This document shows, in pieces, positions 32,729 to 64,000 of a DNA stretch of 64,000 nt. Within the stretch, counting starts at the first letter, position 1; every line of letters begins with the position of its first letter. The DNA is taken from the NCBI GenBank assembly GCA_963705505.1, contig CAVPJU010000003.1, positions 128,001 to 192,000 on the forward strand. Reading direction: 5' to 3'. The notes under the pieces are model-generated. The model did no database searches. It saw only the letters and a list, made by a program, of their open reading frames with translations, and was not told the origin of the DNA. The DNA is from an uncultured bacterium (GTDB taxonomy: Bacteria; Desulfobacterota_D; UBA1144; Nemesobacterales; UBA2774). The position numbers and the translations under genes were made by a program.

Positions 32729-33526
32729 CTACACGCCCCGCCACACAGGGTCTCGCTTTTCTAAAAACGCGTCTATCCCCTCTTCCGCGTCCCGCGCCAT
32801 CATATTTTCGACCATCACGCGGCTGCAGTACTCGTAAGCGCTGCGAAGGTCCTTATCCGCCTGCTCGTAGAACGCCTTTTTGCCGATCTTAAGCGTAAGG
32901 GGGGATTTCGATGAAATTCTCTCCGCCAGCCCGTCAGCAGCGCTGTCGAGCTCGGGAGAAGGCACGACCCGGTTTATGAGCCCGATTTCGTATGCCCGGC
33001 GCGCGGAAATGAAATCCCCGGTTAGCAGCATTTCCATCGCGTGCTTTCTCGAGACATTACGCGAGAGAGCCACCATGGGAGTCGAGCAGAAAAGGCCTAT
33101 ATTTACTCCGGGAGTCGAGAACCTCGCGTTCTCGTCGGCGACCGCGAGATCGCACGTCGCGACGAGCTGACACCCGGCGGCGCTGGCCGCACCGTGGACT
33201 TTCGCGATCACGGGCTTTGGACAGTTAACTATAGAGAGCATCATACGCGAGCATGCCTCAAAGGTCTTCTCGTAAAAATCCCTTCCGGGGTTTCTCCTCA
33301 TCTCTTTAAGGTCGTGCCCCGCACAAAACCCCTTGCCCGCGCCCGACAAAATTACGACCCTGACATTTTCATCGAGGGCTATGGACTCGAACTCCGAGGT
33401 CAGCGCCTCCATACATGCAAGCGAGAGGGAGTTATAAGAGCCGGGCCTGTTCAGGACCAGCCCCGAAACAGCTCCGTTATCGTTTCTGATTACGAGTTCT
33501 TCCGAGCTTTTCTCTGCCAAAGGCAT
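32729..33526 (-). CDS. Enoyl-CoA hydratase family protein (ECHDC3-like)
   Basis: FCAGHDLKE, AAGCQLVATCDL, TPGVNIGLFCSTP, EMLLTG. Confidence 0.92.
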   Translation of the reverse strand: MPLAEKSSEELVIRNDNGAVSGLVLNRPGSYNSLSLACMEALTSEFESIALDENVRVVILSGAGKGFCAGHDLKEMRRNPGRDFYEKTFEACSRMMLSIVNCPKPVIAKVHGAASAAGCQLVATCDLAVADENARFSTPGVNIGLFCSTPMVALSRNVSRKHAMEMLLTGDFISARRAYEIGLINRVVPSPELDSAADGLAERISSKSPLTLKIGKKAFYEQADKDLRSAYEYCSRVMVENMMARDAEEGIDAFLEKRDPVWRGV

Positions 33527-33645
33527 ATAGTGCTTTCTCCGGTGGGGGTCGATCTTTATTTTAGTATATATGGAAAAAACGGGTGAGTTCAAATAGCAAG
33601 GTAATAATGTGAAGTTGATTTCAGGAAAGATTCTGCTTATACCGG

Positions 33646-33903
33646 TCAGTCGAGTCTTACCCGGTCGGTCAGTACGGTTACCTTATCGTCCCTTACCTCG
33701 GCGATCCCGCCTTCGACGATCATCTTTTTCTCATGAGAGCCTTTCTTATACCTGAGCTCCCCTTCGGCAAGGATCGTAATAAAGGGCACGTGCCCGGGCA
33801 GAACTCCGAATTCACCGACCTCGCCGGGTGCAACCACCTCGTCCACTCTTTCGTCCACGACGAGCTTCATCGGTGTTATTACTTGCAGAAGAATGTCCGC
33901 CAA
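33646..33903 (-). CDS. atpC: ATP synthase epsilon subunit (short, beta-domain only)
   Basis: ITP, GEFGVLPGHVP, GGIAEV; follows atpD. Confidence 0.93.
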   Translation of the reverse strand: MADILLQVITPMKLVVDERVDEVVAPGEVGEFGVLPGHVPFITILAEGELRYKKGSHEKKMIVEGGIAEVRDDKVTVLTDRVRLD

Positions 33904-59175: not shown

Positions 59176-60030
59176 CTAAGGTGCGCCGTCATATCCTGAG
59201 AGCCGGGCGATCTGTTCGAGGGGCATTGTACCCTCATAATACTTTCCGTTAATCTCCCACGTCGGATAATTCTCTATCCCTTTGGCGAAACAAAGCGAAG
59301 GATTCGCGTTTGGCCCCTTGGGATGGCATTCGACATAAGTTACGTATTTAAAAGCATCTCCGAAGAGTTTTTTCTGTAAACTACAGTGCGGGCATTTGAA
59401 CGAGCCGTACATCACGGCACCGTGCTCACTCAAATACCTTGCAAGACCCAGCTGATACTGATTTGCAGGTTCCGAACTGCCGGACAGGAGGTCTCGCGTT
59501 TCGCCGAACTTTTCAGCCTGCACCATTGCGGCGCCCAGGACGACAGCCGCGGCAACGGCCAGGCTCAGCATCAAAGTAATAGCCGGGGACAATTTCGGGT
59601 TATACTCGGATTTGGCCGCAAGAAGAGCTATAAAAATTATGGTCATCAATACGGCGGAGAAGATGCAGTACATGCACATAGCTTTTATAACGAACAATTC
59701 GAGGTATGTGAGGTATGCCGAGAATATGAATCCGGCCAGGGCAAATATATATAGCAATAGCCACTTCGTGCGTTTCGCGACGGATATTACGGTCAGAATG
59801 AAGATAACCGAGTAGCCGACAACGCCGATTGCGGCAACGGGAATGCCCAGGACCGTGGAGAAAGCGCTCTGCCTGACAGTATCGCAATCGGAGCCCGACG
59901 CACAAAATGCAGCCTGTGTCTGTGTAAAATATAGAAAGGCAAGGTACAGGGAAAGAAGGACACCTATCGCCGAGAGCGTCAAAACTACTGGTTTTAAGTA
60001 ATTGCCTTTTGTTTTTTTACCCGAACTCAT
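59176..60030 (-). CDS. Vitamin K epoxide reductase fused to a thioredoxin-like domain
   Basis: C.SGSDC..V, CMYC in TM segment; CPHC, YVEC, YPTW. Confidence 0.9.
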   Translation of the reverse strand: MSSGKKTKGNYLKPVVLTLSAIGVLLSLYLAFLYFTQTQAAFCASGSDCDTVRQSAFSTVLGIPVAAIGVVGYSVIFILTVISVAKRTKWLLLYIFALAGFIFSAYLTYLELFVIKAMCMYCIFSAVLMTIIFIALLAAKSEYNPKLSPAITLMLSLAVAAAVVLGAAMVQAEKFGETRDLLSGSSEPANQYQLGLARYLSEHGAVMYGSFKCPHCSLQKKLFGDAFKYVTYVECHPKGPNANPSLCFAKGIENYPTWEINGKYYEGTMPLEQIARLSGYDGAP

Positions 60031-60129: not shown

Positions 60130-62286
60130 TCAGTTCTCGTAAAATTTATTTCCGCCGACCGCAACGTTTTTAAGAACCGGAGGAGGCGTATAACGTGTGC
60201 CGTACCTCACGCTCAGGTTATGAAGCTTCTTTAATACTTCACCGGCGCCGATCGAATCCACATACCTGAACGGACCCCCTTTGTGTGTCGGAAAGCCGAG
60301 ACCGAGAAGCGCGCCCACATCCCCTTCCTTCGCGCTCCCTATGACCTCGTCCTGAAGGCAGAGCATCGCTTCATTCACCATCGCGAGTACGAGCCGGTCC
60401 TGAATGTATTCCTGTGAGACGCTTTCAGAATCCTCTTCTTCGAGCGCCAGCAACTTGCCGAGCGACCTGTCCAATCTTTTTTCATCTCTCCCGTATCTGT
60501 AAAACCCCCGGCCGCTCCTCAACCCTGTCCTCCCGTCCTCTATCATACGGTCGAGTATGGAGAGCGGCTTCATCCTCTCCGCCGACTGCTTGTATGTGAC
60601 CTGAGAGCCCTTCTGAACAAGATCAATCCCTATTTCGTCCATCGCGCCGAGCGGCCCTTCGGGGAATCCGAACTGCATCATCGCGTCCTCAATACCCTGA
60701 GCGCCGATCCCCTCGCTCAGAAGATGAAGGGCCTCGTTAAAATAAGCGAGCTGTATGCGGGTCGTATAAAACCCCGCTTTATTTTTGACTACGAGCGGGA
60801 TCTTCCCGATGCTCTTCCCGAACTCGACCACTTCGGCGACCGTTTCCTGAGAGGTGCTCTCGGCGACGGCGATCTCGATGAGCTCAGTCTCGTGAACGGG
60901 ACCGGGGATACGCATCCCCACAACCCTTTCCGGCCGCTTGGAGCCGCCCGCAATGAGCGCAACGGGGAGGGCGAACGAATTTGAGACGTATATGAAATCA
61001 CCCCCCGGAAGCGACTCGACCTCTTTAAGTATCCTGCGCTTGGCGTCGAGGTCCTCCCCGGAGGTCTCTATAATAATTGCCGCCCTTCTGAAGCCTGAAT
61101 AATCGGAGGCGGCGCTAATGAGGTCGAGCTTCTTTTCGGCCCCGAGCTCGTCCGTCTCGCGGCTTCCGAGCTTTTCCATAAAGAAATCAAAACACGCTTT
61201 CAGGTTTTTCGCCGCGCCGTTAACGTCAGTCCCCTTTATCCTCACGCGGATGCCGTTCTCGGCCGCGAGGCACGCGATCCCCGCGCCGTGATCCTCCTCA
61301 CCCACTACGGCTATTTTCTCGGCCTTCTTTCTGCCTTTATGACCCGGCTTCGTATACCTGACGTCGTTCTTCACCTCGTCTATGGCGATGCCCGATCTGA
61401 TTAACTGCCTGGAATATCCCGTCACCGCGAGCTCGCCGAAATAAACCGATTCCACGTGGAGTCCCCTGTTGAAGCTTGCCACACCTATCTCCAGCGCCTC
61501 AATCGCCATTCTCGAAGCCGTAACGTAAAGCTCGCGGCTCTCCCTTATCTCCTTTTTCGCTTTGTCGAAAAACATTTTCCTCGATACGGGATTTTCTTTG
61601 ATTAAGGCATTGGCCATCCCGCCGAAACTAAGACGCCTGCGCTTGAATTCCTTGTTGGATAATTCGAGAGCGCGCTTCTTCGCTATTTCAAGGAGGAACT
61701 CCTCGGGGACGACCTCATCGAGGAGCCCTATTTGCATTGAATAATCGGGGCCGAGCGTTTCGCCCGCGAGTATCATATCCAGGGTCTGTTTCGTGCCTAT
61801 GACCCTCGCAAGCCGGAGCATCCCTCCGGCGCACGGGATGAGGCCGAAATCTATCTGGTTGAGGCCGAGCACAGTATGCCGGCTACTGGAGGCGACCCTG
61901 TACTTGCAGGCAATGGCGAACTCCAGTCCTATTCCGAGGCACGCTCCCCCTACCGCGGCCACAAAAGGCGCCCTCGAATTCTCTATCTTTTCCGATATTT
62001 CCTGCGCCTTGAGGCTATAAGACCTGCCTTCGTCAGCGAGTGTGAAATTAAGGAACTCCCCCGCGTCCGCTCCGCTGATGAAGCTCCCCTCTTTTGCACT
62101 CGCGATGACGACCGCCTTTATCTCGTCACTGCTCTCCAGCATGTCGAGTTCCCTGTCAACCTTGTTGAGAAACTCCTCAAGGGATAAGAAGCTCTCCTGA
62201 GTGAGCCTGTTCTCCGCGCTGCCGGGAGTATTTATACTCAGCACCGCGACGCCCGTGTCATCAATTGTGTATGAAATGCCGCTCAT
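60130..62286 (-). CDS. FadJ-like fatty-acid oxidation alpha subunit with degenerate active sites
   Basis: ECH + HAD architecture (FISGAD, ACLG.GLE, GFP.GP...DEIG.D, GLGFP..KGGPFRY) but canonical catalytic and NAD motifs altered. Confidence 0.85.
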   Translation of the reverse strand: MSGISYTIDDTGVAVLSINTPGSAENRLTQESFLSLEEFLNKVDRELDMLESSDEIKAVVIASAKEGSFISGADAGEFLNFTLADEGRSYSLKAQEISEKIENSRAPFVAAVGGACLGIGLEFAIACKYRVASSSRHTVLGLNQIDFGLIPCAGGMLRLARVIGTKQTLDMILAGETLGPDYSMQIGLLDEVVPEEFLLEIAKKRALELSNKEFKRRRLSFGGMANALIKENPVSRKMFFDKAKKEIRESRELYVTASRMAIEALEIGVASFNRGLHVESVYFGELAVTGYSRQLIRSGIAIDEVKNDVRYTKPGHKGRKKAEKIAVVGEEDHGAGIACLAAENGIRVRIKGTDVNGAAKNLKACFDFFMEKLGSRETDELGAEKKLDLISAASDYSGFRRAAIIIETSGEDLDAKRRILKEVESLPGGDFIYVSNSFALPVALIAGGSKRPERVVGMRIPGPVHETELIEIAVAESTSQETVAEVVEFGKSIGKIPLVVKNKAGFYTTRIQLAYFNEALHLLSEGIGAQGIEDAMMQFGFPEGPLGAMDEIGIDLVQKGSQVTYKQSAERMKPLSILDRMIEDGRTGLRSGRGFYRYGRDEKRLDRSLGKLLALEEEDSESVSQEYIQDRLVLAMVNEAMLCLQDEVIGSAKEGDVGALLGLGFPTHKGGPFRYVDSIGAGEVLKKLHNLSVRYGTRYTPPPVLKNVAVGGNKFYEN

Positions 62287-62307: not shown

Positions 62308-63606
62308 CTATTCCTTCTCGAGTATTATCGAAGCTCCGAGACCCCCCGCGGAAGGAAGGCTCACGAGTCCGAAGTTCCCCCTCCTCTTAGACATCCTGTA
62401 GGCGAGAGTCATAATAATCCTTGCTCCTGTGGCGCCTAACGGATGCCCGATTGCGATCGAGCCCCCGGAGACGTTGAGCTTATCCATGTCTACCTCGCCC
62501 ACCGCCTGGCTCCTGCCGAGCTTCTCCTTGGCAAAGCCCTTGGAACCGAGCGCCCTGACGTTGGATATTACCTGAGAGGAAAAAGCCTCGTGTATCTCTA
62601 TGAGGTCAATTTCGCTCAAGGGTATGCCGGCGCGGTCGAGAACGATCGGCGTCGAATACGCGGGGCCCATCAGAAGCTCCTCCGAAGGGTCTATCGCCGC
62701 ATAGGCGTACGCCCTGACGTATGCGATGGGCTTATAGCCCAGCGCTCTGGCTTTATCTTCGGACATAAGCAGTATTACCGAAGCCCCGTCCGAAAGGGGC
62801 GCCGAGTTCCCCTCCGTCACAGTACCGAACTCCTTGTCGAAAACCGGGGGGAGCTCGGTGAGTGCTTCGATGCTTACGTCATACCTCACGCCGTTATCGC
62901 CGGAAACGATATCGGTAAAATCGGGCGGTACGAAAGTATGAATTATTTCATCCTCGAATATTCCCTCAGCCTGAGCTCTCGAGGCAAGCGTGTGGCTCCT
63001 TAACGCAAAGGAGTCCTGCTCATCCCTGCTGATTTTATTTTTGCGGGCGAGCTTCTCCGCCGACTCGCCCAGTGTACGCCCCGCGGAACGCTCCGGCAGA
63101 TGCGCCAGCGAGAAAGACATTTCGACAGCGCCCATTTTTAAAAGGGGCCTGGCCCTCTCGATTAAATTCATACCCTTCGAGGATTCAAAGAGCTTTGACC
63201 TCCCGCCGCTGCCGAAGAGATAGGACAAATCGTGTATCGATTCTACTCCGCCTGTTAAAACGACGCCGGAATCTCCCGCCAATATGCTGTCTACCGCAGT
63301 CGTGAAAGCCTGGGTCGCGGATGCGCATGCGCTCGTCACGGTGAAAGCCGGCACAGCGGGAGGGACGCCCGAGCCGAGCGCTATTTCCCTTGCCAGGTTC
63401 GGGGTTCTCACGGACGGTGTCACGCTGCCGAAAATCACCCGCTCTATTTCCTTGGGCGCGATCTCGGTCCTGTTGAGCAGCTCGACTGTCGCCATCTTCC
63501 CCAGGTCGAGGGAAGTGAGATTTTTAAAAAGTGTCCCGCATTTTGCAAAAGGGGTCCTGAGACCGTGGACTACCGCGACTCGTCTTCCGTTACTGATTTG
63601 ACTCAC
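62308..63606 (-). CDS. FadI-like thiolase lacking the C-terminal catalytic Cys
   Basis: GLRTPFAK, PNLAREI, ACAS, DGAS, HEAF, GHPLGATG; LPSAGGLG instead of CAAGGLG. Confidence 0.87.
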   Translation of the reverse strand: MSQISNGRRVAVVHGLRTPFAKCGTLFKNLTSLDLGKMATVELLNRTEIAPKEIERVIFGSVTPSVRTPNLAREIALGSGVPPAVPAFTVTSACASATQAFTTAVDSILAGDSGVVLTGGVESIHDLSYLFGSGGRSKLFESSKGMNLIERARPLLKMGAVEMSFSLAHLPERSAGRTLGESAEKLARKNKISRDEQDSFALRSHTLASRAQAEGIFEDEIIHTFVPPDFTDIVSGDNGVRYDVSIEALTELPPVFDKEFGTVTEGNSAPLSDGASVILLMSEDKARALGYKPIAYVRAYAYAAIDPSEELLMGPAYSTPIVLDRAGIPLSEIDLIEIHEAFSSQVISNVRALGSKGFAKEKLGRSQAVGEVDMDKLNVSGGSIAIGHPLGATGARIIMTLAYRMSKRRGNFGLVSLPSAGGLGASIILEKE

Positions 63607-63780: not shown

Positions 63781-64000
63781 TTATGAACCATGGACTTCAT
63801 TTTTAACCTTCATTTTGAGCTCGATGAATTTTGAATGGTCGATATTGAGCATCCTGTAAAGTTTTTGGGCTACGTAGTTTTCGAATTCACCCAGGGTCCC
63901 GTCCGAGTATATGACCTCCCAGACAGATTCCATTAACTCGTACTTTTCTTCGTTAGACAGGTTTTGATTTATGAGATTAGTAAAATACCACATGTCGGCC
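63781..64000 (-). CDS. TerB family protein (C-terminal part; runs off the right edge)
   Basis: DMWYFT..IN..LS.EEK..LME.VW.VIYSDG.L..FE pattern; frame open to the edge. Confidence 0.75.
   Translation of the reverse strand, partial: ADMWYFTNLINQNLSNEEKYELMESVWEVIYSDGTLGEFENYVAQKLYRMLNIDHSKFIELKMKVKNEVHGS

Follow-up and report, generated by a model that had tools for sequence, protein, structure and literature searches.

A FadJ-like alpha subunit of Candidatus Dadabacteria, predicted to be a selected pseudo-enzyme, beside a partly altered FadI thiolase

TFEs are alpha2-beta2 complexes around a beta2 core, and both FadIJ and HsTFE are membrane-associated (PMC11301753, PMC9329746). For MtTFE, the two catalytic glutamates of the hydratase have been named (PMC11301753), and for thiolases the fingerprints have been described together with the role of the CxG cysteine as the base in catalysis (PMC3406046), with the catalytic cysteine pair confirmed in PMC4595758. 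The closest described systems are E. coli FadJ/FadI (anEcTFE; PDB 6ysv, 6ysw, 8bnr, 8bnu), for whose fadIJ mutant no obvious phenotype has been demonstrated according to a review (PMC9329746), and human HADHA/HADHB (6dv2, 5zqz), which has roles beyond beta-oxidation (PMC11385086) but is fully catalytic, its side roles being additional to its main activities and no substitute for them. Two further systems show altered catalytic residues in one of the folds concerned: mycobacterial EchA6 is a crotonase fold without catalytic residues that is kept by selection (PMC5501465), and M. smegmatis TLP1 is a thiolase fold with altered fingerprints (PMC3406046). EchA6 is a single-domain paralogue among many, whereas the protein described here is the sole full-length FadJ, has two apparently disarmed domains and occurs with a co-altered thiolase; in TLP1, the nucleophile and all five fingerprints are missing, whereas CxG is the only one absent from the thiolase described here, which keeps CxS, HEAF and GH. 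CurH was considered as a precedent for a Cys-less thiolase and rejected, as it keeps all three thiolase residues (PMC11407993). A paper on a trypanosome TFE gave no precedent for an altered pair (PMC4262433), and no description of an altered FadI/FadJ pair was found in the literature searched, which consisted mostly of main texts of non-subscription papers.

The locus lies on the minus strand of a 64,000-nucleotide stretch of DNA, referred to as the window, in a genome (G000) of Candidatus Dadabacteria (its family is termed f1 and its genus g1). The fadJ-like gene (60130..62286, minus strand) has a stop-free frame for an alpha subunit of 718 residues, P0001, a predicted pseudo-enzyme in which the Pfam domains PF00378, PF02737 and PF00725 are present, giving the order ECH, linker, HAD-N and HAD-C. 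Its top family models are those of FadJ, yet the scores are below the curated cut-offs (PRK11154, 599.3 versus 869 bits; TIGR02440, 517.6 versus 968.45 bits). Among solved structures, E. coli FadJ and human HADHA are the closest; by its sequence and fold, HADHA falls in the same subfamily of TFEs. With E. coli FadJ/FadI, the system shares the domain order, 35% sequence identity, the fadI-fadJ gene order, a HEAF-type thiolase and a cationic stretch at residues 212-250; an AlphaFold model based on a 52-sequence alignment has a pLDDT of 87.7 and a TM score of 0.89-0.90 to the E. coli FadJ structures 6ysw/6ysv, and thus the frame and the predicted fold are both intact, as a sequence-only reading of the window had claimed for the frame and the scaffold motifs. 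P0001 differs from E. coli FadJ by a 7-residue insertion near residues 44-50 and by lineage-specific surface patches, and above all at the active sites.

In an alignment to E. coli FadJ (8bnu), all six motif changes named in the sequence-only reading are present. In the hydratase site (61852..61935, minus strand), GGGLE is replaced by GIGLE at residues 118-122 (61935-61921; G119I, E. coli G115) and LPEV by LNQI at residues 142-145 (61863-61852; P143N and E144Q, E. coli P139 and E140), which leaves the two-Glu pair incomplete, with E122 present and a Gln at position 144. In the NAD-binding loop (61231..61302, minus strand), GGGLMG is GEEDHG at residues 329-334 (61302-61285; G331E, E. coli G317), and KD is KG at residues 351-352 (D352G, E. 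coli D339), so that both the GxGxxG pattern and the Asp of FadJ are missing. In the dehydrogenase site (60898..60984, minus strand), SNTS is SNSF at residues 435-438 (S438F, E. coli S425) and GLHFFSP is GMRIPGP at residues 457-463 (H459R, E. coli H446); the Ser and the His of the His-Glu pair are thereby lost, and E471 is retained. FYTTR in place of FYVNR was rejected as a further loss, as YTTR and YTSR are common in canonical FadJ. Among 145 diverse FadJ-like representatives (50% clustering), 127 keep all of nine marker sites, nine have one change, eight have two to four, and a single one, P0245, has six; the motifs of the latter match the protein of genome G011 from the Dadabacteria lineage. 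At 56 outgroup loci, 52 show no change at the covered sites and four show one. With 127/145 representatives fully canonical and only one with six changes, the P0001 pattern is far from normal variation.

When 32 non-redundant altered FadJ sequences (family f1 without genus g3; P0049 and P0058 left out) were compared with 72 canonical ones, 34 of the 139 canonically conserved sites were lost, 25 partly lost and 80, many of them Gly or Pro, kept. The lost sites cluster at the two active sites, namely at the hydratase positions 119, 143, 144, 147, the 251-256 loop, 299 and 307, and at the NAD or substrate positions 331, 333, 352, 408, 409, 437, 438, 459, 462-468, 542-543 and 667-668 of the dehydrogenase; for the non-catalytic ones among them, the assignment to pockets is our assumption. 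E122, E471 and K416 are kept in all of 80 altered sequences, and E407 in 79. Of the earlier statement that both active sites had been rewritten, the replacement of catalytic residues in both sites thus stands, but with these four residues retained the sites are disarmed rather than wholly rewritten. Loss of the hydratase and dehydrogenase activities of the alpha subunit is what these replacements predict.

Another 52 sites are conserved in altered FadJ but rare in canonical FadJ, and they fall in three patches. The helix patch 77-104 (61975..62058, minus strand) is lineage-conserved and partly common to the canonical Dadabacteria of the genera g19 and g21. The linker helices (residues 213-310; 61357..61650, minus strand) comprise the cationic stretch 212-250, whose net charge of +7 equals that of the stretch in E. 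coli FadJ, and a lineage-conserved patch 260-286, which is again partly shared with g19/g21. The cationic stretch may bind the membrane, and one might guess that the patches 77-104 and 260-286 have a role at the alpha-beta contact. The C-terminal helix patch 681-702 (60181..60246, minus strand) is conserved in the altered family and variable in canonical FadJ including that of g19/g21, which suggests a candidate new binding surface.

The sequence-only reading was silent on the adjacent FadI, which is altered as well. The FadI-like thiolase P0002 (432 residues; 62308..63606, minus strand) is encoded upstream of fadJ, with 21 bases between the two genes. C94 (63327-63325), H339 (62592-62590) and H388 (62445-62443) are kept within the CxS, HEAF and GHP fingerprints, and the acid/base Cys of the CxG fingerprint is replaced by P418 (62355-62353). 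The score is below the curated cut-off of PRK08963 (495.2 versus 560) and above that of TIGR01930 (395.2 versus 240.55). In comparison with E. coli FadJ/FadI, the altered alpha subunit hence lacks a hydratase Glu, the NAD-binding Gly and Asp, the Ser and the His, and the beta subunit lacks the acid/base Cys. The CxG Cys is Pro, Ala or Ser in g1 (10/10), g4 (5/5), g5, g6 (3/3), g3 and g23, and it is present in g2 (9/9), g9, g17, g19-g22 and g24. In g2, FadI is fully canonical in 9/9 genomes beside an altered alpha subunit, and this combination implies that the alpha subunit was altered first and the thiolase second. Of 158 Dadabacteria-like FadI rows, 73 lack the second Cys; G011, which lost both Cys, and G048, which lost one His and the second Cys, were set apart, and C94, H339 and H388 are kept in all 71 others. 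As 41 of 110 canonically conserved non-Gly/Pro FadI sites are invariant in that clade (70 rows, one gapped row dropped), the chance of keeping all three is about 0.05, and their retention is only suggestive. The most diverged pair is that of G011 (locus L042, G011:C1, near 1163400-1166900), in which FadI has neither Cys and FadJ has 6/6 changes, and both are full length. Drift is seen in FadI region 124-170 of g1 and g4 (dN/dS 0.20-0.21), unlike in g2 and g6 (0.06 and 0.03); the value is also 0.17 in canonical g19.

Of the 120 genomes searched in the class, 44 have a match to P0001 at E <= 1e-50, among them 30/32 others of family f1, 12/15 of f7 and 1/1 of f3; six further families of the class, with mostly smaller genomes, gave none, and 76/120 genomes are without a match. 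No second full-length, canonical FadJ copy was found in any class genome searched: where two matches occurred, they came from split or duplicated contigs, from a gene in two pieces (G009; L015/L061, G009:C30:49459-51613, in two frames near residue 532 through a frameshift or an assembly error) or a 9% contaminated bin (G100). Likewise, neither canonical fadIJ nor FadJ/FadB was found elsewhere in the window's genome, whose assembly is 93.6% complete. A dead paralogue beside an active FadJ/FadB was therefore rejected. The loci were examined in 43 of the 44 genomes (G096 left out). All 30 genomes of f1 have five or six of six marker sites changed, save for G021 among them, whose partial gene has 4/4. 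The altered form is thus common to the orthologs at one syntenic site, and close relatives are not canonical (0/10 genomes of the genus, 0/30 of the family), so that the check set by the sequence-only reading, canonical residues in close relatives, did not overturn its view. Outside f1, six sites are changed in G026, five in G048, two to three in g17, two in g22 and g24, and one of two covered in G041; in g19 and g21, with five genomes (G040, G051, G052, G042, G044), none is changed. FadIJ of these two genera shares the locus, about 45% identity to P0001 and the range of dN/dS, but every marker residue is canonical in both subunits, which would make it a natural active control. In 42 of the 43 loci, fadI is directly upstream of fadJ, and the remaining locus ends at a contig edge. 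The gene order terB, fadI, fadJ, VKOR is common to canonical and altered genomes, and because of this shared neighbourhood the P0001 gene is the orthologue and not a spare copy; its orthology and synteny with canonical fadIJ identify it as the fadJ that Dadabacteria inherited vertically. In the one metatranscriptome considered, 5% of words matched, and its contigs cover fadI, fadJ and neighbours in short pieces of low depth that may derive from DNA, which is no evidence of expression. A scan for promoters and terminators gave nothing usable.

The outgroup-rooted FadJ tree, which is a quick tree, forms a ladder that begins with canonical g19/g21 and continues with g22/g24, then g23, g17, G011/G026 and f1. 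All stages between the canonical complex and the altered state are represented in the class. All altered FadJ rows are on one side of a branch with an SH-aLRT of 98 and share an SFxRGLHVESVYF-like patch, and an f7 clade is rejected (p-AU 8e-6) in a test with 26 rows under LG+G4 that included the trait columns. A single origin of altered FadJ is likely, but not more than that, as a neighbour-gene tree separates f7 from f1 and f3 and as long branches meet. G011, G026 and G048 form long branches in the FadJ and FadI trees alike, as expected of coupled subunits. Five FadJ-like sequences without the Dadabacteria patch (P0263, P0283, P0311, P0319, P0354) have changes at three to four marker sites and are possibly independent dead FadJ lineages; the name of P0283 refers to Bacteroidia and that of P0319 to Calditrichota.

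Selection was estimated as dN/dS (Nei-Gojobori with Jukes-Cantor correction) from pairs with dS of 0.05-1.5, which are not independent of each other. For altered fadJ, the medians are 0.102 in g1 (43/45 pairs), 0.103 in g2 (11/36), 0.067 in g4 (15/15) and 0.115 in g6 (3/3), and thus well below 1 and similar to canonical g19 (0.117, 3/3 pairs); g17 gave 0.195 (3/3) and canonical g21 0.181 (1/1). The values for fadI are similar (g1 0.098, 38/45 pairs), and nine neighbouring genes have 0.04-0.18. By domain (ECH, linker, HAD-N and HAD-C), fadJ has 0.119, 0.061, 0.127 and 0.065 in g1, and 0.113, 0.059, 0.138 and 0.081 in g2. The linker, which has the lowest value in g1 together with HAD-C, and HAD-C itself therefore evolve about half as fast as the two catalytic domains in these genera, and this contrast is absent in canonical g19 (0.108, 0.141, 0.110 and 0.094). 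The pattern is uneven, as g4 shows the contrast in HAD-C alone, its linker (0.071) being no slower than ECH (0.065), and as canonical g21 (one pair) has a low linker value of 0.045 as well. A sequencing error or recent decay was rejected, as the altered form is family-wide and dN/dS is near 0.1. Family-wide retention, this dN/dS and the intact predicted fold all support the earlier view of a selected pseudo-enzyme rather than a decaying gene, and with regard to hydratase and dehydrogenase the alpha subunit is very probably just that.

How can a genome afford this? G000 encodes five standalone crotonases, a single dehydrogenase, a further pair of thiolases and three acyl-CoA dehydrogenases. Canonical motifs are present in both of these thiolases, in the dehydrogenase and in one of the crotonases; the activities lost by FadJ are thus probably available, at least for short chains. 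One standalone crotonase (about 32729-33682, minus strand; G000:C3:160729-161682) has neither canonical Glu (AAGCQ, TPGV), and three more deviate from the two-Glu pattern. Pathway inventories do not separate canonical from altered lineages: acyl-CoA dehydrogenases occur in 119/120 genomes, AMP-binding proteins with 8-20 matches in 5/5 genomes, and the FadL family was found in 0/5 genomes. A large cluster of AMP-binding domains in G036 (C5:632000-663000), with open frames of 3077, 2014 and 7177 residues, is probably an NRPS.

We consider it moderately probable that the non-catalytic alpha subunit is kept as a scaffold, i.e. as an assembly or membrane-docking partner for FadI. Its chemistry would have been lost after standalone enzymes had made it redundant, while it would still build the alpha2-beta2 complex and may dock this complex on the membrane, as FadJ and HADHA do; the dependence of FadI on it would be the initial reason for its retention. 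In g1, g4, g5 and g6, FadI would later have lost the acid/base Cys, while keeping the nucleophile and the oxyanion histidines. Without this Cys, FadI should not complete thiolysis or non-decarboxylative condensation. Given a scaffolding alpha subunit, acyl transfer would be the likeliest reaction left to the Cys-less FadI, though on less than even terms: with Cys94 and both histidines retained, it would still be able to form an acyl-enzyme and could serve to transfer or exchange acyl groups; alternatively, the whole complex could be a non-catalytic assembly. If FadI of g1 were dead as well, scaffolding FadI would explain nothing by itself, and E122, invariant in 80/80, stands against a pure scaffold, which has no obvious need for it. 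Cys-His-His is also the catalytic set of FabB/FabF, and a rather doubtful extension is a repurposed complex in which the dead FadJ, having gained a new binding face at its C-terminus, would be the scaffold that docks on the membrane, and the Cys-His-His of FadI, freed of the acid/base Cys, would work as an acyltransferase or a ketosynthase-type decarboxylative condensing enzyme. Judged by its residues, the altered pair would be a FadIJ-type assembly without FadJ chemistry, as it lacks residues that define FadJ and FadI catalytically.

What alternatives exist for the scaffold? The complex could be non-enzymatic and work with a third partner, such as a respiratory complex, the membrane or the TerB-family neighbour, with the Cys and His of FadI as structural leftovers. 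The TerB-family gene upstream of fadI, of which the window holds the 3' part (63781..64000, minus strand; 152 residues, G000:C3:191781-192239), has a fadJ-like profile, as it is present in 44/120 genomes, 42 of them shared with fadJ, and this shared phylogenetic profile makes a functional link to fadIJ conceivable. A third partner would also agree with the conservation of patch 681-702 in the altered family only, and with G011, which keeps both genes full length despite the loss of both FadI cysteines. On the other hand, the genomes without fadJ and terB are mostly small (about 1-2.4 Mb) and have lost many genes, terB remained by the nuoE-like gene in g17 when fadIJ was relocated, no terB match was found in G041 and G048, although both have fadJ, and FadI of g2 is canonical throughout; we regard this alternative, with its putative partners, as unlikely. 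The VKOR-domain gene downstream of fadJ (59176..60030, minus strand) is a conserved neighbour, but it was rejected as a system member: it is present in 96/120 genomes, for which reason it is probably outside the system, and it persists without fadIJ or terB nearby in L150-L159. A lone NuoE-like 2Fe-2S gene (G000:C3:192401-192967; L051:5352-5825) is divergent from terB and is followed by a DUF4147/MOFRL gene, which we take to be of the glycerate-kinase type, and then dnaB. In three genomes (L032, L043, L044), FHA-domain and PP2C phosphatase genes are upstream of terB/fadI; in two that lack fadIJ (L152, L156), they lie upstream of VKOR.

The other functions proposed in the sequence-only reading, an acyl-CoA sensor or a neofunctionalised enzyme, fare worse than the scaffold, as pocket residues are lost and replacements differ between genera. 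A non-catalytic acyl-CoA carrier or sensor would have a precedent in a non-catalytic crotonase that binds acyl-CoA (EchA6; PMC5501465, citing Cox et al. 2016), and it would be compatible with the intact predicted fold and with the retention of E122, G114, G118, G120, G148, G154, G155 and R158. It is nevertheless improbable, since the TxGxYP loop (251-256), F299 and K307 are kept in only 0-6% of altered FadJ, the first oxyanion-hole position (A73) is Pro in g6, and the higher dN/dS falls in both catalytic domains, with stronger selection on the linker and the C-terminal helices, as a scaffold would have it. We presume that the loop, F299 and K307 line the CoA pocket of FadJ-type hydratases. No better are the prospects of new catalysis, e.g. 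by a one-Glu crotonase via E122 or by a HADHA-like acyl transfer from acyl-CoA to lysolipid, which likewise appears improbable. The near invariance of E122, E407, K416 and E471 agrees with it, as does position 438, which is always Phe, Tyr or Leu, and position 459, where the canonical His is Arg in 65, Asn in 12 and Lys in three of the 80 altered sequences; monolysocardiolipin acyltransferase activity has moreover been reported for HADHA, but the same source ties it to the His-Glu site, of which the altered alpha subunit has lost the His (PMC11385086). No new invariant polar residue was seen in either alpha pocket across genera, and as the replacements vary by genus (the canonical Glu at position 144 is Gln in 49, Gly in 25, Glu in five and Ser in one) and the oxyanion hole of g6 has the Pro, no common new active site is visible. 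Slow decay, suggested by the ladder of rising loss, the long branches of G011, G026 and G048, the 76 genomes without a match and the split gene of G009, is largely refuted by dN/dS near 0.1 at dS near 1 and by nearly all contiguous copies being full length, and it is highly improbable, together with normal FadJ activity despite six independent changes at catalytic or cofactor positions.

Most descriptions of bacterial pseudo-enzymes concern a dead paralogue that accompanies an active copy. In this family, the only full-length FadJ appears disarmed, and the thiolase partner is partly disarmed in four of the family's genera and in two other lineages. With living intermediates and active-looking orthologues at one locus, the Dadabacteria may thus provide a series on how a multienzyme complex becomes entrenched and is then repurposed, and the altered series is suited for isolating non-catalytic roles of FadIJ- and HADHA-type complexes. 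For the organisms themselves, the database names hydratase and dehydrogenase that these proteins carry probably overcall beta-oxidation in Dadabacteria.
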